Below, piece by piece: positions 5,682 through 57,845 of a DNA stretch of 64,000 nucleotides (the stretch's first letter is position 1; each line of letters starts with the position of its first letter). The position numbers and the translations under genes were made by a program. The stretch lies in IMG/VR virus record IMGVR_UViG_3300019776_000212, positions 1 to 64,000 of that record; one strand, 5' to 3'. Under the pieces are notes generated by a model. It did not search any database and was not told the DNA's origin. It was given only the letters and a program-made list of their open reading frames with translations. The stretch comes from a virus.

Positions 5682-6932
5682 ATGAGCGAGGTATTTCGTC
5701 AGAAGCTGTACGGTCTTGAGAAAGGTGGCAAGTACAAGGTGTGGGAGATTTTCGTCCTGAACCACGGTGATGAGTCTGAAATGACAATCTATCACGGTCA
5801 GGAAGGTGGGGCACAGACCCAAAAGACTGACATGTTTGACCTTGGCAATCAAGGTCGTGGGCACTACGAACAAGCTGTGTTCGAAGCTCGTGCACGCATC
5901 AAGAAGCAACTGGACAAGAACTACCGCGCCACCAAAGAAGAACTGACCGATCTGCCAGTGCTGGCGATGCTGTCTAAAGACCACACCAAAGATGGGAAGG
6001 ACGAAACTGTAGAGCAAGGCGTATACACCTCCCGTAAGTTGGATGGTGTGCGTTGCTTGGCCAAGTGCGTGAAAAAGCTGAGTGGTGTTGATATCATCAT
6101 TGAGTCTCGCACTGGACAGCCGTATGATGTTCCACATATTGTGGCAGAGCTTCGTAAGTTTATGAAGCCGGGTGACATTCTGGATGGCGAGCTTTACGTG
6201 CATGGACCAAGCCTGCAAGAAATCACCTCTGCGGTGAAGCGTACTGACGCCCAAGAGAAATACAGCAAGGCTTTCACGAAGCTGGAGAAAGCTATCACTG
6301 CCTTTGAGAAAACTGGCAAACCGTATGCGAACAAGCTGCGGGAAGATGCGGCAGAAGCCTTGCACATCGCCACGATTCGTGACATGCTTGAGTTCCACGT
6401 GTTTGACCTCGTGGAAATGGAGGTGCCGTTCAGCCATCGTGTGTTCCGTCTGAACAAGTATGCTGAGCAGAATTTTGTTGACTTCGTCCACATTGTTGTT
6501 GTACCTTACGACTACGCTGATAGCATTGAAGACCTCAATGATCTTCTGAAACGGTATGTGAACGAAGGCTACGAAGGCTTGATGTACCGCACACAAGATG
6601 GCCTGTACGAAAGCGGTAAGCGTTCGTCTGGTTTGTGGAAGTACAAGCTGTTCTTCGATGAAGAGTTCAAAATCATTGGAGTAGGTGTTGACAAGCAGGG
6701 GTACGCTGTGTTCCAATTGCTCAATAACGTAAACGATGAAGAGTTCAACTGCGTACTGGGCGACTACAACTGGCGTACAGAAGCAGCGAAGCAAAAAGAG
6801 CTTTACATCGGTAAGTGGATGACTGTACAATACCAGTCACGATACAAAGGAACACTGCTTCCGCAGTTTCCGAGTGGAAAAGTGATTCGAGAGGGCGTCG
6901 TCAAGAACGGCATCTTCACACCAACTGAATAA
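5682..6932 (+). CDS. ATP-dependent DNA ligase
   Basis: SRKLDGVRC (KxDG), LDGELY, FHVFDL, EGLMYR, KYK, PQFP. Confidence 0.93.
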   Translation: MSEVFRQKLYGLEKGGKYKVWEIFVLNHGDESEMTIYHGQEGGAQTQKTDMFDLGNQGRGHYEQAVFEARARIKKQLDKNYRATKEELTDLPVLAMLSKDHTKDGKDETVEQGVYTSRKLDGVRCLAKCVKKLSGVDIIIESRTGQPYDVPHIVAELRKFMKPGDILDGELYVHGPSLQEITSAVKRTDAQEKYSKAFTKLEKAITAFEKTGKPYANKLREDAAEALHIATIRDMLEFHVFDLVEMEVPFSHRVFRLNKYAEQNFVDFVHIVVVPYDYADSIEDLNDLLKRYVNEGYEGLMYRTQDGLYESGKRSSGLWKYKLFFDEEFKIIGVGVDKQGYAVFQLLNNVNDEEFNCVLGDYNWRTEAAKQKELYIGKWMTVQYQSRYKGTLLPQFPSGKVIREGVVKNGIFTPTE

Positions 6933-10973: not shown

Positions 10974-12737
10974 ATGTTTTTCGAAATGATGTTCGGTACT
11001 GATGGTTACAAACTTGGTCATGGTGGCATGAAGCGTAAAGGCACTACCCACAGCGTGGCCAACCTGACCCCACGCACTGACAAGATCTATCGCCGCACCT
11101 GCACTTCGTTCTACGACGGTAAGCTGGTTTGGGTTGGTGGTGAAGCTGCCGTTGCCGAGATTCACGAAAATTGGGAGATCTCGTTCTTTAACTTGCCTAA
11201 AAGTTTGGTAATTGATGAGTATGAGATCTTCATCAAGGGTTACCTCGGTATGGACCTGCCAACCAGCCAACAAATGGCAGACCTGCATGACCTTGGCTAC
11301 CTGCCACTGGAATTCCGTGGGCTGCCAGAAGGCTCTCTGGTCCCAATGGGTGTACCAGTGCTTACCATCGAAAACACTCACCCTGATTTCGAATGGCTGG
11401 TGAATTATCACGAAACCCCGGTGTCTTGTATGACTTGGAAGACTGCAACCAACGCCACCATTGCGCGTGAGTACAAGCTGATCTGTGAGCACTACCTTAA
11501 ACTTACTGGCAGTTATGATGCATTCACCCTGTCTGTGATGTGCCATGACTTCTCCATGCGTGGTATGTCTGGTCTGGAAGACGCTGCTCGCTCTGGTGTT
11601 GGTCACCTCACCAGCTTCATTGGCACTGACAGCCTGCTGTCCGACCGTTACGCAAAACGTTACTACGGCTGTGAAGGTGTTGTGTCGATTTCGGTTCCAG
11701 CAACTGAGCATGCAGTGACCAGTCAGAACATCATCAGCATCGAGCAAGAGTTGAAAGATAGCAGCTACGTCTTTGTTAATGAAGAACAAATGGCTATCTA
11801 CGGCGAAATGCTGGCAAACATGGAAGATAGCCGACTGATCGCTGAGGTGATGTTCGTCTATGTCCTGATCACCGTACTGGTTCCTAACGGTATTGTGTCG
11901 AACGTGTCTGACACCTACGACTTCTGGGGCATGACGGCACGAGGTTACCCATATCTGGTAGACGTGATCCGTGCACGTGGTCCGAATGGTTTGGCTCCGG
12001 GTAAAGTGGTTGTACGCCCAGATTCTGGTGATCCCGTCACTGTGATTTGTGGCATGAAGCCTGTATTGGACGACGAAGGCACTGGCAAAGCTTTTGACTT
12101 CCCTACCAAGGAAGACTTCAAGGCAACTCTCGAAGTGTTCGGTTGGGGTGCGATCCGTGACAAAGATTGTGTGAAAATTGATGGCAAGTTCTACTCTCTG
12201 GACGCCTCTGGTGCGTTCTTGAAGATTGGTACTGAGGAAATTCCATACGAAGTCGTAGCTGGTGCGGTTCGTACTCTGTGGAAAACCTTCGGTGGCACCA
12301 TCACTGAAACCGGGCACAAACTGCTTGACCCTTGCATCCGTTTGATCTATGGTGATAGCATCACCACCAAACGTGCAGAAGAGATCCTGCGTCGTCTGGC
12401 TGAGAACGGCTTTGCTGCTGCAAACGTTGTGTTTGGTGTCGGCTCGTACACCTATCAGTGCAATACCCGTGACACCTTTGGCTTTGCTGTGAAGGCAACC
12501 AATAGCACCATCAACGGCGTTGACGTAGCGATCTTCAAAGAGCCGAAAACCGACTCCAAGAAGAAGAGTGCGAAAGGTCGTCTGGTTGTGTACCAAGGTG
12601 AAAATACTTTCCGGCTTATCGACCAAGCACCAAAAGCGCTTGTACTGGACAAAGACAACATGTTGCAAGTGTTCCGTCGTGATGGTGAGGTGAAGCGTAA
12701 AACTTCGCTTGACACCATCCGCCAACGACTGGCATAA
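10974..12737 (+). CDS. nicotinamide phosphoribosyltransferase-like protein (probable NARP1 Namat)
   Basis: TDGYKLGH, HDFSMRG, PATEH, VSDTYD, RPDSGDP, IYGDSI, RDTFGFAVK, KKSAKG. Confidence 0.92.
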   Translation: MFFEMMFGTDGYKLGHGGMKRKGTTHSVANLTPRTDKIYRRTCTSFYDGKLVWVGGEAAVAEIHENWEISFFNLPKSLVIDEYEIFIKGYLGMDLPTSQQMADLHDLGYLPLEFRGLPEGSLVPMGVPVLTIENTHPDFEWLVNYHETPVSCMTWKTATNATIAREYKLICEHYLKLTGSYDAFTLSVMCHDFSMRGMSGLEDAARSGVGHLTSFIGTDSLLSDRYAKRYYGCEGVVSISVPATEHAVTSQNIISIEQELKDSSYVFVNEEQMAIYGEMLANMEDSRLIAEVMFVYVLITVLVPNGIVSNVSDTYDFWGMTARGYPYLVDVIRARGPNGLAPGKVVVRPDSGDPVTVICGMKPVLDDEGTGKAFDFPTKEDFKATLEVFGWGAIRDKDCVKIDGKFYSLDASGAFLKIGTEEIPYEVVAGAVRTLWKTFGGTITETGHKLLDPCIRLIYGDSITTKRAEEILRRLAENGFAAANVVFGVGSYTYQCNTRDTFGFAVKATNSTINGVDVAIFKEPKTDSKKKSAKGRLVVYQGENTFRLIDQAPKALVLDKDNMLQVFRRDGEVKRKTSLDTIRQRLA

Positions 12738-14544: not shown

Positions 14545-14745
14545 ATGAGAGCTTTGAAAATCGCGGCAATGTACACCTTGATTGCTGCCGTAGCTGTGGT
14601 CCTGATCTTCGGATCTCTTGTAGGCACGTTTCACGTGTTTAGTATGTTCGTCGTAATGACAGAGGGTTGGCAATTGATCGCCTCCGTTGTATGGTTTCTT
14701 GAGCTTGTGTTCATGCTGGTCTTCTGTCTTGAGCGGCTTGGTTAG
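14545..14745 (+). CDS. small membrane protein
   Basis: AAGGAGG RBS; two hydrophobic segments. Confidence 0.6.
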   Translation: MRALKIAAMYTLIAAVAVVLIFGSLVGTFHVFSMFVVMTEGWQLIASVVWFLELVFMLVFCLERLG

Positions 14746-14748
14746 TGC

Positions 14749-14778
14749 TTGACATACCCCGCTTCGGCGGGGTATCCT
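14749..14778 (+). promoter_or_regulatory. promoter overlapping a UUCG hairpin
   Basis: TTGACA..TATCCT overlapping ATACCCCGC-TTCG-GCGGGGTAT. Confidence 0.55.
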
Positions 14779-14810
14779 TTGCCCCATCATATACAAACAA
14801 GGATATAACC

Positions 14811-16088
14811 ATGAAAGTAGTGAACAAGCCGATCTCGTTCGATCTTGAAGAAGTTACCGCACAAGAGGTGCCATACCTGAATGCTTTCTACCGTGATGGA
14901 GAGGTGCTTAATAAGGATGTGCAAGACCTGTTGGCATTCCCACTGAAACACCAAGCAGCTATGCCGTTCTACACCATCAAGGACAGCACAACGTACAAAC
15001 TCAACCAACAGTTTGAGGCTTACTACGCAATGATGAAGGATGCCTTGAAGATTGCAATGGAAGACCGAGATCTTATGGATAAGTTCTTCGACTGCTCATT
15101 CTGGCGTGAACATGGTGATCGATTCCTTCCATACGCCAAGTACACGTTCCAGAAGAATCACCCTGCTTTGTATGGCCGTTATGACGCCTGTTTCGACCCT
15201 GAGACGGAAGAGCTTATTGGCGTATATGAATTCAACGGCGATACTCCGGTGATGCTGTTTGAGTCGGTAAACCTGCAAGCCCGTTACTCGGTAGAACTGG
15301 GCACTGACCAGTACAACAACTATCTTGACATTTTCAAGGAGCAGATGGGTAAACAGAGCTACAATGAAGTGGCTGTGGTCGTAGGCACAACCTACGTTGA
15401 AGACATGGCAACCGCTGACACTCTGTGCCAGATGTTCCGTCAAGCTATCCCGAAAGCTACTGTTCAATTCGGAGATATCAAGGAACTGGACTTCGACCAT
15501 GCTAATATCAACAAGCCCTTCATTCTGGCTGGTGACACTGAGCACTTGGACGCTGTGTTTATCCTGAGCCCTTGGGAAGAGATGGTGGATAATTTCCCGA
15601 AAATGCTTGACCACTGGGAACGTTGGGCTGATAATGTCCACCTGTACGAGCCTGCGTGGCGTTGGTTCTTTGCCCACAAGGGCATGACTGCCCTGTGCAG
15701 CTATTTGGCAGACATTGATAGTGACTTCTACCTGAGGCACTATGAAGCCACTCGAATCCTGCTGCCGACCTATCTGGAGAAGGATGCCTTGGCTCTGAAC
15801 CTGAAAGGGCAGTGGGTTGAGAAACCTGTAGTTGGTCGCTTGTCGAACAACATCAAAGTGTGGCACAATGGTTTCAAAGTGAGTGACACTGGAGGCTTCT
15901 ACACTGGGGAAAATACTGTATTCCAGCTGTACACAGATCCAAAGCAAGTGGAGGGGCGTAACAACTTCATCATGGGTATGTGGGTATGTGGTGATCATGC
16001 TGCCACCCTGTGCATGCGCGAGTTTGACAGTGAGGTGTTGAGCATCAGCAACGAACGCTACATTCCACATATTGTTCTGGAGGGCTGA
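14811..16088 (+). CDS. glutathionylspermidine-synthase-like ATP-grasp ligase (YgiC/YjfC-like)
   Basis: LYGRYD, YEFNGDTP..LFES, PWE, EPAW, KP..GR..N, RYIPH; ATG 14811 has an RBS. Confidence 0.85.
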   Translation: MKVVNKPISFDLEEVTAQEVPYLNAFYRDGEVLNKDVQDLLAFPLKHQAAMPFYTIKDSTTYKLNQQFEAYYAMMKDALKIAMEDRDLMDKFFDCSFWREHGDRFLPYAKYTFQKNHPALYGRYDACFDPETEELIGVYEFNGDTPVMLFESVNLQARYSVELGTDQYNNYLDIFKEQMGKQSYNEVAVVVGTTYVEDMATADTLCQMFRQAIPKATVQFGDIKELDFDHANINKPFILAGDTEHLDAVFILSPWEEMVDNFPKMLDHWERWADNVHLYEPAWRWFFAHKGMTALCSYLADIDSDFYLRHYEATRILLPTYLEKDALALNLKGQWVEKPVVGRLSNNIKVWHNGFKVSDTGGFYTGENTVFQLYTDPKQVEGRNNFIMGMWVCGDHAATLCMREFDSEVLSISNERYIPHIVLEG

Positions 16089-36233: not shown

Positions 36234-36870
36234 AGCTCCAAAGTGTGACTCGATCCTAGTTTCTGGTCGAAAACGTGGAACACTCAGGAATCTCCGTGGA
36301 ACAATGCTTAGCTCGCTAACTAAAATAGTTAGCCTCCTATCGAAATTGAGTAGCTCGCTAACTATCTCAACCCTCCCAGAAATATCTCCGCTCCCCCTGT
36401 GAAAAACTGTCCAGTTCCCAAATTTTAAAATCGCCCCAGTTCTAAAAATCTGTCGAGTTCCTAATTTTCCACAGACAAAGAAAAGCCCCACACTTGGCGG
36501 GGCTCCTTCTTTCAATGCAGTTGTTCACGAGGTTCCTGACTACCTCTTGCTGGCTTTCTTTACACTGTTGTCTACAGCACCTGCGGATGCTGGTATACCG
36601 ATGAACAGCCAGCACACCACGAAGAACAGGCGGCCTCCTGAACTCCAGAGCGTCAAGTCCCAGCTGAAAGGGATAAAGCCTACAACACCCCACAGGAACA
36701 GGAATACACCAAACAGCACTGAAACAAAGATAGCAAACTCACGCATCACAACTCTCCTTTTAAAATCAAGCTTATAGGGCCACCCCTAGAATCGCACGGA
36801 AAATAATCGCAGCGAATAAATAAGGGTGGCACCAATAATCGCACGGAAATAATTACAGTGCAACCAATAA

Positions 36871-37950
36871 TTAAGCTTTCTTGTACACCTTGCAGGAGTA
36901 AGTTGATTGAGTAAGTCCTTTGCGAGGCCCTTCGTAGCTGTTACGAATGCAGTCTTGTTTCTCGTACAGCTTCTTCACCCGCTCAGGGCAGTCACCTCGT
37001 CCATCATTGTAGTAGATGTGCTTGGACAGTGCAACATCCAAGTTTGCATACTCAGGGCCAACCACACCTTCACGGCGTTCAGTGATCTTGACGCTGTTGT
37101 TTTCGATCACAATACCCGGCTCTTTAGGCCCGTATTCATACTTAGGTTGGCCACCGGGGTACTCCCCAACTTTGATTTGGGTTGTCACGATGTCACTTGC
37201 AAACAAGCCAACCCACTGGCTGTCTTTCAGAGTCTCGGTGCCGTCATCACGGATGTTAACTTGTTGGGTATAACGGCCACCGTAGTAGCGGCTTTGGTTT
37301 CGTTGGTACTCAGTGTCATACAACTGTCGATGCTGAGTCCACTCAAGCTTCACCATGCCCAAGAACTGGACTTCCTTACTCTCACGGCCAAAGGTGTGTA
37401 ACTTCACCCAATCGCCCGGCATCAAATCTTTGATCTTCAAGGCTTCTTGCACTTTCTCGATCTTGACCACTGCCTTACGGTACTCTTCGGTGTGCACAGG
37501 AAGCAGTACATGCTTGTTGTCTGTACCCCATACGCACTCTTCCTGAATCACACCATTGATGATGGTGCAGTACTGCATCAGAGTGGTGAGGTTGCCCACT
37601 TCCACCTGCACCTTGAATCCACGCGGATCTTCAATTTCAATGTATGTGGCCTCAGTAGTCCAACGGCCCGCCTGCCCAACAACCTTAAAACCTTTCACTG
37701 GGATGTTGTCATAGAAGGTTTCAATACCTTCGTTTGCAGGGATTTTCGGGCCATCATACACCCACTTACCGTCCTCATACTTGGTCGGCTGGTGAGCACC
37801 GTTTCTTGCCCACTTACGCCCTGTCTCCATCTTCTTAGATGTGGCAGCATCAGGGCTGCCATCTTTCTTTGTAGTCACTTGGGTCATATACGCCAATGGC
37901 GTACGGTTCTGGTCAACTACACTCCAGATTTGGGATTCGATCTTGATCAT
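36871..37950 (-). CDS. hypothetical protein
   Basis: 359-aa ORF; IEDPRGF motif; GGAGG RBS. Confidence 0.75.
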   Translation of the reverse strand: MIKIESQIWSVVDQNRTPLAYMTQVTTKKDGSPDAATSKKMETGRKWARNGAHQPTKYEDGKWVYDGPKIPANEGIETFYDNIPVKGFKVVGQAGRWTTEATYIEIEDPRGFKVQVEVGNLTTLMQYCTIINGVIQEECVWGTDNKHVLLPVHTEEYRKAVVKIEKVQEALKIKDLMPGDWVKLHTFGRESKEVQFLGMVKLEWTQHRQLYDTEYQRNQSRYYGGRYTQQVNIRDDGTETLKDSQWVGLFASDIVTTQIKVGEYPGGQPKYEYGPKEPGIVIENNSVKITERREGVVGPEYANLDVALSKHIYYNDGRGDCPERVKKLYEKQDCIRNSYEGPRKGLTQSTYSCKVYKKA

Positions 37951-38357
37951 TTTGCGGCCTCCATTACAATGCGTTTGAATTCACGAAGTTTCTCCACTTC
38001 CTCACGAAGCTCTTGGAGTTCGGAATCCATTCGGATAATGCCTTTGGCGTAATCCACCATCTGACGATTTGATGGTGGCACAATTTCTGTCCGAGTAACG
38101 CCCCCAGAGGAGATGAGTACGAAGTTTGAGAGATGTGGGCCGTCCCCGTAAGGCTCCAAGCCAAGAATCAAAGTATCACCATCCTCGTGCCGTGTGAAGC
38201 CAACTACCTTGAATACCTCACCATCTTTGCATTGGTGGGACACCCCGCCGTCTGCCCAAGCTGCTGAAAACCCCATCCTTAAGGCTGCTCCCTTGTAAGT
38301 GGAGTAGCAGCGTCCCGAGTCAGTGACGGTAACGATATCGCCCTTTTGGTATTCCAT
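37947..38357 (-). CDS. hypothetical protein
   Basis: AAGGAG RBS, coiled-coil end. Confidence 0.65.
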   Translation of the reverse strand: MEYQKGDIVTVTDSGRCYSTYKGAALRMGFSAAWADGGVSHQCKDGEVFKVVGFTRHEDGDTLILGLEPYGDGPHLSNFVLISSGGVTRTEIVPPSNRQMVDYAKGIIRMDSELQELREEVEKLREFKRIVMEAAK

Positions 38358-38371
38358 AAAATTCTCCTTTA

Positions 38372-38893
38372 TTAGCTCCAGAATTTAGGTGAGATGCCCC
38401 ACCAGCTTTTGTTTTGAAGGGTGATCATACCACCAGCTTCCACCACTTGGCAAGGGATTGTTTTTCGGTGAGGTGCCTTTGTGATTTCACCCATCTTGTG
38501 CACCGGGTTGTGAAATTCTCCGACACGCTCTCGCATCATCTGATCGTGCAATGCGAAAGCCATAACCTCATGCGGATCTTTCTTAACCTTTACACCCTCA
38601 CGGCGCTTTCTGTCCCAGTGACGGCCACGTTGGTTGCCAGTAAACTGGCGTTCAGGGTACAGACCCGGTGCAATATCCCACTGCACTTCATCATGGTGGC
38701 TCATGCAGCGAAGTTCAAGATTGGAGAAGTCTGGGCTCTCAAGGCTGATGTAACCAATTCCGGTGCTCTTGGCCATAGCCATGCTTGCAGCACTTGCTGC
38801 AAGCTCTTCGATGTAAGCTTGCATAAAACTGCTCTTACCATTCATGCCGTAGTGAAGTCCGTACATGATGGTCTTCTGTGCTTGGCGGTCCAT
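38372..38893 (-). CDS. small protein made of DNA polymerase A motif fragments
   Basis: KTIMYGLHYGM (motif B), DFSNLELRCMSH (motif A), HDEVQW (motif C), DPHEVMA. Confidence 0.65.
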   Translation of the reverse strand: MDRQAQKTIMYGLHYGMNGKSSFMQAYIEELAASAASMAMAKSTGIGYISLESPDFSNLELRCMSHHDEVQWDIAPGLYPERQFTGNQRGRHWDRKRREGVKVKKDPHEVMAFALHDQMMRERVGEFHNPVHKMGEITKAPHRKTIPCQVVEAGGMITLQNKSWWGISPKFWS

Positions 38894-39560
38894 TACCATT
38901 TACCCTCGTAGAAGAACTTGTGAACTGGAGTTGATTCTGCGCCCTCTATACGTGGTGCTGCAAACAGTGTAACCTCTCCAGTCTCGTAGTTGGTGATCTT
39001 AACAGAGATTCTCTTGTCCTGTCTACTGTCTTCGATCAGAAACTTACCGCGTTGTGTGTAAGTTTTTACATCATAACAGATGCGGCCGCGCTTACCATTC
39101 GAGTAGAGGCCTCCTACACTCTCGCACCAACTACGTGCTTCCCACTCTACTGACTGAAATGCTGCTGCGTCCATTTGTGTAACTCCGTTGTTTGATTGAT
39201 GTACTCAGTTATCGCTTCGTTGTGTGGGTAGTATACAGGGTGCAGATATGTTGTCAACCACTAAATCACTTTTCTACAGGCAAAAGAAAGCCCGCACATG
39301 GCGGGCTAGGGGTTGGAACGTTCAGCTAGAAGAACCTCAATAAAAGCCATTCTGTCAGCAATCCATTGCCTACGTGGAGCCTTGTAAGTGACATCCATCT
39401 CAGCTTTAAGAGCCGAATATTCGGCCTTCAAATCCCTTGAACTTGTGTCCTCTAGGTGAGAGCGTTCTCTCTCATTGAGCATTAGTCATGCCTCCTATTG
39501 TTGTAAAGAGTAATCCTTTACTCTCACCATATAGTAGCACAGTCTAACGCTCAGTGTCAA

Positions 39561-55577: not shown

Positions 55578-57845
55578 TTAGTGAATGTCGCTGTATCTTG
55601 GGCCGAATTGAGTTTCGCAGTCAAGCTTACGACGCAGACCATAGTCCTCATTCACCTTGTGTACAGCATCCTTGATCATCTTTGCGATGATCAGGCGGTT
55701 TGCCTCAGTGTCACCCATGCAGATGATGCATTCGTCGTGGAACGAGCCCGACAGCCGCTTCACACCCCATTTAGCTTTCATTGCAGTCAGGATGTTATCC
55801 ACCCACATATCGAAGAAGAACGAGCCAGTGCCTTGGGCCAGTGTAGAGAATCGGTCACTCTCCTTACGAAGAGAGTAGCAGAAGCCGTTGATTGGGTTTA
55901 CCAACCACTTCGCACCACGTGCATCCCGAATCACCACCTGCTCTTCTGCAATAGCCTTAACGCTCCAGTTCAGCTCCCAGTAAGCTTTGTGCAGAATGAT
56001 GCCCTCAGCCTCAGGAACACCTGCTGCTTGAGCAATCTTAGCAGCGCCAGCGTTGTACACGGAAGCGTAGTTTGTAGTCTTACCCTTCTTACGTGCTGCT
56101 ACAGCGTTCTTACTCTTCTTACCAGCCTTGAAGTCGTCAAACTCTTGCTGGGTCACCATCTTGGCGATAAGCGCCATCAGGATGTGTGGATCGAAGTCAT
56201 CAGCCTGCATCGTCTCAACATACTCTGGGTCATGCGGGAGCATGAAGTGGTGCTTCACACGGTCTTCAAGAGACGACATGTCAGAGCCTACCAGAATCTT
56301 CTTCAAGCCTGCAATCAACCCGCCACGAATGTCATAGCCATAAGCCTTGTCCACGCCCGGCAGGTTTACCAGCTCACGGTGCTTAACACGCAGGGTGTTA
56401 GTGAATCCACCAATGCGCGCCTTCAACCATTCTCCATCCTCCAGAGCTTCAAGGAAGCCCTCAAGAACACCCAGACGGTTTTTGGCCACAGTGTAGTCAG
56501 CATACACCTTAATCTGTGGAACCTCTTCTGCCAAGTCTTCCAGAGAAGGGCAAAGCTCCTTGCCGTCATCACCAGCTCGGGTTACTTGTGGAATCTCACG
56601 TTCTTTCGGACGGTTCTCCTTCCACTCTGCCCAAGCTCTTTGGTTCTTTGCATTCTTGCCTTTTGGCTTGCTGGCCACCCATTTGTTGAAAGCCTCTTCG
56701 TCTTTCTCGTATTTGAAGGTTTGAGGAATCCAACCCATCGCAAACAAGAAGTCTTTCACCTGTGCAGGGGAGCCACAGTTTGGTTCTTCGTTCTTGTTCC
56801 ACACACGATAATACTGCTCACCACGCTCATCCACTCCATCTTCTGGGTTGATGTAGACAAGCACCTTACCCGTTTCTGGGTCTGTTGCTTGATCTGCGTA
56901 GTCAGCCATTACACCGTCCCACTTAATCCAGTGGGATGCCCTGTCGCCGTTCTTTTTGAACGGGTCGATCTTCGGTGAACTCTTCTTGACATACTTTGGC
57001 ACCTTTGGCATTACGCTTTCCAGCTCTGCCTTGGCAGCCTCTACGATCTTTGCGAGCTTGTCACGGCTAGCGATCACAGTGGGAACATCCACCTGCCAGC
57101 GAGTCTTCTCCTGCAACCGTGCACAATCCATTTTGAACATCAGGAATGTGAGGATACTGTCAACTGCACTGTCAACCGAACGTCCAACCATATCGTCAAT
57201 TGGAATCCACTCATCAGCATGCTGACGTCGGCCACCGACGTTCAACCAGTTGCCCGTCTTTTGATCTTCAACACCATTGTCAATAGCATCTTGAGCAATC
57301 GTGTAGATGTTCTCAAGTCGAGCCATGTGGTCGTCCCACAGTGCCCAGTTGATCTTAACGTCCTCTTGGCATCGGTGAGTCATAGAGTCCAAGAACTCTT
57401 CAAGGGTTTCACCCTCTTGTTGCTCCCAGTGCTCGATAGCTGGCTTGGCAATGCCGTAGTCGGCAAAGAACGAATCCAAGCCGTGCATGTTACGGTCTGG
57501 GCTCAAGTACCAGCTAGTTGCCAGAGTGTCGATCACCATCAAATTGGTGAGATCAATTCCAAACAGCTTTTCCAAAGCTGGTGCGTCGTAGCCGATACCG
57601 TTGTGCATTACAATTGGAATGCCATTCTTGATGTGGTAGTCAAGGAAGGCAACCACTTGGGCCTTATAGTCACGGCCCTTTGCATCCAGACGATCACGAC
57701 GAATGGTTTTTTCGATGAATGCACCTTCCAGACCGGGGCTGTGCATCTTGTAAGACAACACGTGCATCTCAGTTACTGCGTACAACAGGCCATTGGCCTC
57801 GACGTCAGCTACAGTGGCCTTACGCCAGTTTGTCACCTGTTTCAT
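55578..57845 (-). CDS. family A DNA polymerase with a 3'-5' exonuclease domain
   Basis: DVE, HNGIGYD, CQED (exo); DMSSLEDR (A), KTTNYASVY (B), FHDE (C). Confidence 0.93.
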   Translation of the reverse strand: MKQVTNWRKATVADVEANGLLYAVTEMHVLSYKMHSPGLEGAFIEKTIRRDRLDAKGRDYKAQVVAFLDYHIKNGIPIVMHNGIGYDAPALEKLFGIDLTNLMVIDTLATSWYLSPDRNMHGLDSFFADYGIAKPAIEHWEQQEGETLEEFLDSMTHRCQEDVKINWALWDDHMARLENIYTIAQDAIDNGVEDQKTGNWLNVGGRRQHADEWIPIDDMVGRSVDSAVDSILTFLMFKMDCARLQEKTRWQVDVPTVIASRDKLAKIVEAAKAELESVMPKVPKYVKKSSPKIDPFKKNGDRASHWIKWDGVMADYADQATDPETGKVLVYINPEDGVDERGEQYYRVWNKNEEPNCGSPAQVKDFLFAMGWIPQTFKYEKDEEAFNKWVASKPKGKNAKNQRAWAEWKENRPKEREIPQVTRAGDDGKELCPSLEDLAEEVPQIKVYADYTVAKNRLGVLEGFLEALEDGEWLKARIGGFTNTLRVKHRELVNLPGVDKAYGYDIRGGLIAGLKKILVGSDMSSLEDRVKHHFMLPHDPEYVETMQADDFDPHILMALIAKMVTQQEFDDFKAGKKSKNAVAARKKGKTTNYASVYNAGAAKIAQAAGVPEAEGIILHKAYWELNWSVKAIAEEQVVIRDARGAKWLVNPINGFCYSLRKESDRFSTLAQGTGSFFFDMWVDNILTAMKAKWGVKRLSGSFHDECIICMGDTEANRLIIAKMIKDAVHKVNEDYGLRRKLDCETQFGPRYSDIH

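Follow-up and report, generated by a model that had tools for sequence, protein, structure and literature searches.

The locus analysed here raises the question of why a phage that already encodes a complete family A DNA polymerase (PolA) should also carry a small gene whose product, hereafter the mini-protein, presents short stretches resembling the active-site motifs of that enzyme family, close together and in an order that the enzyme does not have. The gene lies in a window of 64,000 nucleotides that comprises positions 1 to 64,000 of the IMG/VR record IMGVR_UViG_3300019776_000212, a complete virus genome of 96,211 bp with direct terminal repeats. The virus is a Tartuvirus-like Pseudomonas phage of the family Vandenendeviridae, to which the cultured phage KoPa-4 (genus Tartuvirus) has been assigned (PMC12451628). 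An earlier sequence-only reading of this DNA had taken the mini-protein to be stitched together from four PolA-like peptides and had proposed that it misleads a polymerase-sensing defence system of the host.

The phage polymerase and the operon of the mini-protein gene

The phage's own PolA, encoded at 55578-57845, is a complete T7-like enzyme with an N-terminal 3'-5' exonuclease domain and intact motifs A, B and C, and the window also encodes a primase-helicase, ribonucleotide reductase (RNR), ThyX, NAPRTase and a ligase. Since all motifs and the exonuclease domain are present in the real PolA, we can rule out that the mini-protein complements a defective polymerase in trans. A BLASTP comparison of the mini-protein with this PolA detected no similarity, which excludes a recent duplicate of the phage's own polymerase, as the sequence-only reading had already argued.

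The mini-protein gene occupies 38372-38893 on the minus strand, the strand on which all features described below are located. In the list of open reading frames the corresponding entry spans 38372-38899 (175 aa) because of an alternative in-frame ATG at 38899; however, the homologues begin with MDRQA, and the ATG at 38893 is thus the likely start, giving a protein of 173 aa. This ATG overlaps the TAA stop codon of an upstream 93-aa ORF as TAATG and is preceded by GAGGG at a distance of 8-9 nt, in agreement with the ribosome-binding site that had been assigned to the gene.

The proposed placement of the gene in an operon likewise proved correct. The operon starts at a sigma-70-type promoter (39230-39257; TTGACA-16 nt-TATACT, 11 of 12 matches in a consensus scan), directly upstream of which a scan and the sequence itself place the terminator of a preceding 58-aa gene (39289-39307). 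The promoter is followed by the 93-aa ORF (38893-39174), which heads the operon in this phage alone and for which neither phage records nor PHROG and Pfam gave any match, then by the mini-protein gene, a 136-aa gene (37947-38357) and finally a 359-aa gene (36871-37950) that overlaps the 136-aa gene by 4 nt; a terminator found by scanning at 36481-36507 closes the operon. Searches of Pfam, PHROG, PADLOC, the PDB and the ESM Atlas returned no informative match for the neighbouring genes, the 359-aa gene being assigned to phrog_6266, a group of unknown function.

Distribution and divergence of the family

About 20 sequences of the mini-protein family were recovered. Their sources are contigs of phage size and six cultured Pseudomonas phages (XD2, NoPa, Kassivere, Roomu-2, KoPa-4 and Amme-3), and all are annotated as hypothetical and, apart from P0008 with 112 aa, between 150 and 193 aa long. 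The homologue search found no longer or fused relatives. None of 185,579 prokaryote genomes contained a match, the search of a representative set of 1.84 billion proteins returned only three clusters, and the family profile matched nothing in IMG/VR and a single locus, L007, in the JGI metagenomes. PHROGs and PADLOC gave no match, no named homologue was found in NCBI, and in the literature we found no paper on this gene or on permuted PolA pieces. Clusters of 91 aa and 233 aa in the ESM Atlas that carry PF00476 represent other small phage ORFs with PolA fragments, and their sequences are unrelated to the mini-protein family.

In the Tartuviruses a terminator and a sigma-70-type promoter immediately precede the mini-protein gene, and their sequences are near-identical to those in the window. 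The 136-aa gene always adjoins it, being confined to exactly the six phage records that contain the mini-protein gene and occurring again beside it at the metagenome locus L007, and both genes are jointly missing from three IMG/VR relatives. In the relative examined in detail (L011) the 359-aa gene comes immediately after the 58-aa gene, and it is thus present also in relatives without the mini-protein gene. Since the 58-aa and 359-aa genes adjoin each other in these relatives, the mini-protein gene and the 136-aa gene form an accessory cassette of two genes.

The mini-protein is under purifying selection and yet diverges fast. Its dN/dS ratio is 0.22-0.26 at a dS of about 0.9, compared with 0.11-0.17 for the neighbouring genes, and between the window and the Tartuviruses it shares only 45-49% identity, while PolA shares 85%. 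A full ORF in about 20 genomes and a dN/dS ratio in this range confirm that the gene is intact, as had been stated from the single sequence. They also rule out, together with the missing PolA-like flanks and the non-colinear order of the motifs, that the mini-protein is a decaying colinear remnant of a PolA gene (dN/dS about 0.25). We conclude that the mini-protein gene is a real accessory gene of Tartuvirus-like Pseudomonas phages.

Resemblance to the motifs of family A polymerases

The stretches that resemble PolA motifs all fall within residues 2-72, in the order B-A-C, and their coordinates were verified by translation. Residues 2-21 (38831-38890) correspond to motif B, the O-helix, whose definition R-x3-K-x3-[FY]-G-x2-Y-G is reproduced with exact spacing as R3-x3-K7-x3-Y11-G12-x2-Y15-G16; the likeness was detected by Pfam, by alignment to Pol theta, by hhalign and by a block HMM. 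Residues 22-47 (38753-38830), with the words YIEE and SMA, form a conserved segment without significant PolA counterpart, which was delimited by its conservation and by a helix predicted by AlphaFold at residues 22-44. The motif A look-alike at residues 48-66 (38696-38752) consists of a hydrophobic stretch followed by D55-F-S-N-L-E60-L-R62-C-M-S-H, so that DFSNLELR after YISL takes the place of the defining D-Y-S-Q-[IL]-E-L-R after a hydrophobic strand; in its general form, D-[FY]-S-x-L-E-L-R-x-x-x-H, it was found by Pfam, the Pol theta alignment and a block HMM. It is followed immediately by HDEVQW (residues 67-72; 38678-38695), for which there are two readings, a T7-type motif C (VHDE[IV]Q) or the end of motif A with its AHLSxDE word. 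The second is the one that HMMER adopts in its alignment to motif A of Pol theta; against this, in P0008 the word HFHDEFVF lies some 15-20 residues downstream of motif A, and the HDE.Q word conserved in the family, HDE[VI]Q in its fuller form, matches the T7-type motif C and is shared with a T7-like PolA. The motifs A and C are T7-like in flavour, the N-terminal motif B is nearer to the Pol I/T5 type, and none of them resembles the phage's own PolA.

Beyond these motifs, in the C-terminal 100 residues, the mini-protein is unrelated to family A polymerases. This part contains a basic patch, NQRGRHWDRKRRE (residues 87-99; 38597-38635), which is not PolA-like and is the most conserved segment by entropy, and DPHEVMA (residues 106-112; 38558-38578), the fourth of the peptides named in the sequence-only reading.

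In a Pfam search DNA_pol_A was the sole family listed, with residues 4-35 aligned to profile positions 206-237 at an E-value of 0.045 and 13.1 bits, which lies below the gathering threshold of 34.3 bits for PF00476. The same profile was matched separately by 9 of 15 family members, the best with an E-value of 0.022 and all of them below the family cut-off, and no other Pfam family was matched by more than one of the 15. When the whole 96-kb genome was scanned in six frames, PF00476 found only the true PolA and the mini-protein ORF, the latter with motif B at profile positions 206-236 and motif A at 154-170, that is, out of order. A profile of five homologues searched against the PDB likewise retrieved Pol theta (E-value 5e-4) with query residues 2-47 on motif B and 53-76 on motif A, again out of order, although this match weakened to an E-value of 0.011 with a broader family profile. 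The motif B segment alone matched Pol theta chains only (E-values 0.017-0.25), the profile of the motif A segment alone matched no polymerase in the PDB, and hhalign against an alignment of 10 independent PolAs aligned motif B only (P 1.7e-4, probability 50%). The scrambled motif order claimed from the single sequence is thus seen in both the PF00476 and the Pol theta matches, and the short, out-of-order hits that had been predicted for an HMM search were indeed what the PF00476 scan and the PDB profile search produced.

Block HMMs, each representing a single PolA block from the 10 independent PolAs, were scored on every member of the family and, for comparison, on 3000 shuffled versions of each. 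On the mini-protein of the window block B reached 13.3 bits, a score attained by 0 of 3000 shuffles, and in the 14 of 15 members that possess the segment it reached 9-19.5 bits, values that shuffles never attained. Block A scored 6.9 bits (0 of 3000 shuffles), its best match in the family was always the DFSxLELR site and its median p across members was about 1e-3. Block C gave 3.5 bits (7 of 3000 shuffles), with the HDE site as best match in most members. In a ranking of 928 real six-frame ORF pieces, only the true PolAs came ahead of the family for blocks A and B, whereas for block C the family was only third of the non-PolA pieces, and regular expressions for motifs A and B matched only true PolAs and this family. 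As judged from these sequence scores, the likeness to motifs B and A is more than chance, and the likeness to motif C is suggestive. The claim of four PolA-like peptides thus stands for motifs B and A and, less firmly, for HDE, whereas DPHEVMA drops out: its PolA likeness is unsupported (block D HMM 0.1 bits, 136 of 3000 shuffles), and it occurs in only 2 of 15 members, P0001, the protein of the window, and P0002, while the other members carry a different segment at this position.

Family A polymerases such as Klenow, Taq, T7 gp5 and Pol theta (PF00476) display the motifs in the order A-B-C over about 180 residues, whereas the mini-protein has B-A-C within 70. Control blocks for the DIH region, the P-helix/GYVxTLxGRR region and helix Q gave no match in the mini-protein, which indicates that the intervening polymerase sequence is absent, as had been proposed; since control blocks P and Q score nothing, a colinear map in which GYVxTLxGRR would lie between motifs B and C was rejected. 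Nor does the mini-protein match the thumb, motifs 1, 2 and 6 or the exonuclease, and its sequence is also without the remaining fingers and the blocks that bind primer and template. Given its small size and these missing blocks, the mini-protein cannot work as a polymerase. A PolA-like part of only 70 residues would not accommodate the complete right-hand fold of palm, fingers and thumb.

Conservation and natural variants

The sequence-only reading had expected motif islands that are conserved between variable linkers. This is not what the alignment shows, as residues 1-70 are conserved throughout and the helix between the motifs equals the motifs themselves in conservation, so that the family possesses one conserved domain of 70 residues. 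Within it D55, E60 and R62 are invariant in 15 of 15 members, and the five closest homologues all share R3, K7, Y15 and G16, which are also nearly invariant in the members that carry motif B, the exception being P0016 with a gap of one residue in motif B and, in addition, G in place of D68. In the basic patch (NQRGRHW..R) N87, R89, R91, W93 and R97 are nearly invariant, while the protein is more variable from residue 100 on and most variable in its last 15 residues.

Two kinds of variants bear on motif B. The viable Tartuviruses Roomu-2, KoPa-4 and Amme-3 have lost it by a clean in-frame deletion of 21 codons, while Kassivere, which is 94% identical to them, retains it. P0007, in turn, has an unrelated N-terminus and a T7-type motif B (a word of the FGFAYGAGP type; 11.8 bits, 0 of 3000 shuffles) directly after motif A, and is therefore the sole member with A before B, the native order of PolA. 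That P0007 keeps one motif B, at a position after motif A, suggests selection for both motifs regardless of their order.

Structure prediction

AlphaFold2 models of the full mini-protein, calculated with 15 homologues, and of residues 1-86 had pLDDT values of 52 and 57, respectively. Only helices were defined, at residues 3-15, 22-44 and 57-65, and no usable tertiary structure resulted, so that a PolA-like arrangement of the motifs is putative. The predicted helices 3-15 and 57-65 would fit the O-helix of PolA and the helix that follows the motif A aspartate. The ESM Atlas model had a pLDDT of 0.36, and feature matches in the ESM Atlas to PolA-bearing clusters, at about 0.9 with few shared features, constitute a weak lead.

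A tentative reading as a PolA-derived binding module

The reading that we prefer, with a probability of roughly 0.4, is that the mini-protein is a PolA-derived, non-polymerising binding module that would serve as an early accessory protein together with the 136-aa protein. Its core would be residues 1-70, which we take to descend from, or closely copy, the active-site elements of a family A polymerase, compressed into the order B-A-C. The mini-protein carries the triphosphate-binding and base-stacking residues of the O-helix (R3, K7, Y11 and Y15), the acid pair of motif A (D55 and E60) and HDE, and the invariance of just those residues that hold catalytic and dNTP-contact positions in PolA speaks for such an origin. 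The role as an early accessory module is favoured by the accessory, phage-only distribution, the presence of a sigma-70 promoter of its own and the strict co-occurrence with the 136-aa gene. On the other side, all PolA matches are below the family thresholds, motif A alone finds no PolA in the PDB and motif C is only suggestive, and the viability of Roomu-2, KoPa-4 and Amme-3 makes it doubtful that the triphosphate-binding helix is strictly required.

From its host-type sigma-70 promoter the mini-protein would be made early, and it would act as a small binding module in one of two ways. The module might hold a ligand of the PolA site, such as a nucleoside triphosphate or a related nucleotide with metal, or it might itself be bound by something that recognises the PolA active site. 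In either case its probable partner would be the 136-aa protein that is inherited along with it, and its role would probably lie in taking over the host or in countering host defences. Predicted early expression, accessory spread and rapid divergence, which are typical of but not specific to counter-defence genes, are all found for this gene.

The catalytically dead PolB module of eukaryotic Pol epsilon is an inactivated polymerase-derived module that has been kept as a non-catalytic part. Both would have in common a polymerase-derived sequence under selection for a role other than polymerisation; however, the dead PolB module keeps its fold and has lost the catalytic residues, while in the mini-protein the catalytic residues appear to have been kept and almost the entire fold lost.

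Alternative explanations

The likeness might be due to chance or convergence, the mini-protein then being an unrelated small phage protein that resembles PolA motifs without shared ancestry or chemistry. This explanation retains its weight because every match is short and below the thresholds and because the candidate emerged from a screen of millions of ORFs, in which rare coincidences are expected; moreover, the conserved domain includes parts that are not PolA-like, namely residues 22-47 and the basic patch. Nevertheless, it would have to account for three motifs of one enzyme family within 70 residues (p below about 3e-4, below about 3e-4 and about 2e-3), for regular expressions of motifs A and B that among the 928 ORF pieces pick out nothing besides true PolAs and the family, for a T7-type motif B at another place in P0007, and for the independent PF00476 matches of 9 of the 15 members. 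We thus consider chance unlikely, though of appreciable weight.

Rather improbable in our view is that the B-A-C module is a minimal handler of nucleotides, which binds dNTP or NTP with Mg2+ and acts as a sponge, a sensor or even a rudimentary nucleotidyltransferase, while nucleic acid would be bound by the basic patch. In Klenow, Taq and T7 polymerase the counterparts of the conserved residues contact the triphosphate, the base and the metals, and the family shows little or no variation at these positions; nucleic acid could bind to the conserved basic segment 87-99, and the phage is rich in genes of nucleotide and NAD metabolism (RNR, ThyX and NAPRTase). However, three phages do without motif B, which would bind the triphosphate, D68 is replaced by G in P0016, the AlphaFold models are unconfident at the pLDDT values given above, and we know of no precedent for a PolA-type active site of 70 residues. 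To a similar extent we doubt that the motifs face each other in a permuted miniature active site which, as a mimic, would block an Avs19-like receptor or soak up nucleotide.

The proposal of the sequence-only reading, an immune decoy, would now take the form of a mini-protein that shows PolA active-site elements to an Avs19-type STAND NTPase, occupies the sensor without activating it and thereby shields the real polymerase. Its premise that defence systems are triggered by phage replication proteins is well founded, since a family of STAND receptors, Avs19, senses family A DNA polymerases (PMC13581612). The gene is also accessory, fast-evolving, restricted to phages and predicted to be expressed early, like many counter-defence genes, its motifs are conserved across the family, and their flavours (T7-like A and C, Pol I/T5-like B) are unlike those of the phage's own PolA. 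DSAD1, which blocks DSR2, is a competitor for the trigger site of a phage-sensing immune receptor and offers a conceptual match, in that a sensor could be occupied by a small phage protein made early; to our knowledge, however, the known trigger-site competitors are not sequence mimics of the trigger. Sensing by Avs19 is reported to require the whole core polymerase domain but not the catalytic aspartate (PMC13581612), which points to recognition of a fold and not of linear motifs, and a segment of 70 residues is unlikely to reproduce the fold that Avs19 sees. The AlphaFold models (pLDDT 52 and 57) gave no confident fold. A mimic could equally well trigger the sensor. Furthermore, motif B is deleted in three viable phages, the linker between B and A matches the motifs in conservation, and the phage's own PolA retains the canonical motif residues, which speaks against the drift of the true polymerase from a recognised pattern that the proposal had invoked. 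A decoy of this kind is therefore quite improbable.

Very improbable, finally, is a modulator of family A polymerases, a fragment that competes with or docks on host Pol I, the phage PolA or their partners and redirects early replication or repair, since the active-site motifs of PolA are buried and not known as surfaces for partner binding and there is no co-variation with the phage PolA, even though motif B is closest to the Pol I/T5 type rather than to the phage's own PolA and early expression is predicted from the promoter.

Implications for phage biology

If the preferred reading as a PolA-derived binding module is correct, the mini-protein would represent such a module in a miniature and permuted architecture; we found no described family of mini-proteins with permuted PolA motifs. 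Should the motifs prove functional, no smaller setting would be known in which a protein keeps the active-site elements of family A polymerases together, and the mini-protein would be an unusual example of catalytic residues outliving the fold of their enzyme. If, on the other hand, the likeness is functionally empty, the family would provide a calibration of how far a resemblance in short motifs can mislead. The cultured Pseudomonas putida phages supply a natural experiment, as motif B is present in NoPa and Kassivere and absent from Roomu-2, KoPa-4 and Amme-3. The mini-protein also offers a concrete test of whether phages counter polymerase-sensing receptors, which were first described in 2026, and if it should prove to be a mimic, all that the phage has kept of an enzyme would be its conserved recognition surface, put to use in counter-defence.

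Genomic setting of the mini-protein gene

Upstream of the cassette lies a terminator-plus-promoter block (39225-39310, minus strand; counterparts at 2870-2960 in both of the Tartuvirus loci L002 and L003), the DNA of which is nearly identical between the window phage and the Tartuviruses, while the proteins encoded by the genes flanking it share only 41-66% identity between the same phages. The leader ahead of the first operon gene contains ATCAAACAACGGAG. The promoter is separated from the mini-protein gene by a 93-aa orphan ORF (38893-39174, minus strand), which occurs at that place in the window phage only and for which no homologue was found among 50,697 phage records.

The mini-protein gene is accompanied by a minus-strand gene for a 136-aa protein (37947-38357), and the two genes were co-distributed in all genomes of known context, being jointly absent from the related IMG/VR phages. 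The N-terminus of the 136-aa protein gave a faint SH3-like match (Pfam E 0.042), and its tail resembles a coiled coil upon inspection by eye.

Other genes, located in the plus-strand block and assigned by Pfam match only, encode an ATP-dependent DNA ligase (5682-6932), a NAPRTase-family protein (10974-12737) and a glutathionylspermidine-synthase-like protein (14745-16088).

In a relative, vB_PsyM_KIL1 (KU130126.1, 58434-61685), the PolA match is split into two pieces across 3.2 kb. Interruption of PolA can therefore occur in this phage group, with an intron or a homing endonuclease as a possible cause.

Order and loss of motif B

In P0007, a metagenomic family member of 193 aa, a T7-type motif B directly follows motif A (residues 71-105), which corresponds to the native PolA order, and the N-terminus is unrelated to the motif B usually found there. 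Among the cultured phages, Roomu-2, KoPa-4 and Amme-3 carry a clean in-frame deletion of 21 codons in the mini-protein gene, as seen when the deleted forms (L002:2989-3441, L009:2989-3441 and L010:2989-3441) were compared with the longer ones (L008:2992-3507 and L003:2992-3501). The segment lost is exactly motif B, which is retained in Kassivere, 94% identical to these three phages. The cultured phages with and without motif B represent a natural deletion series.
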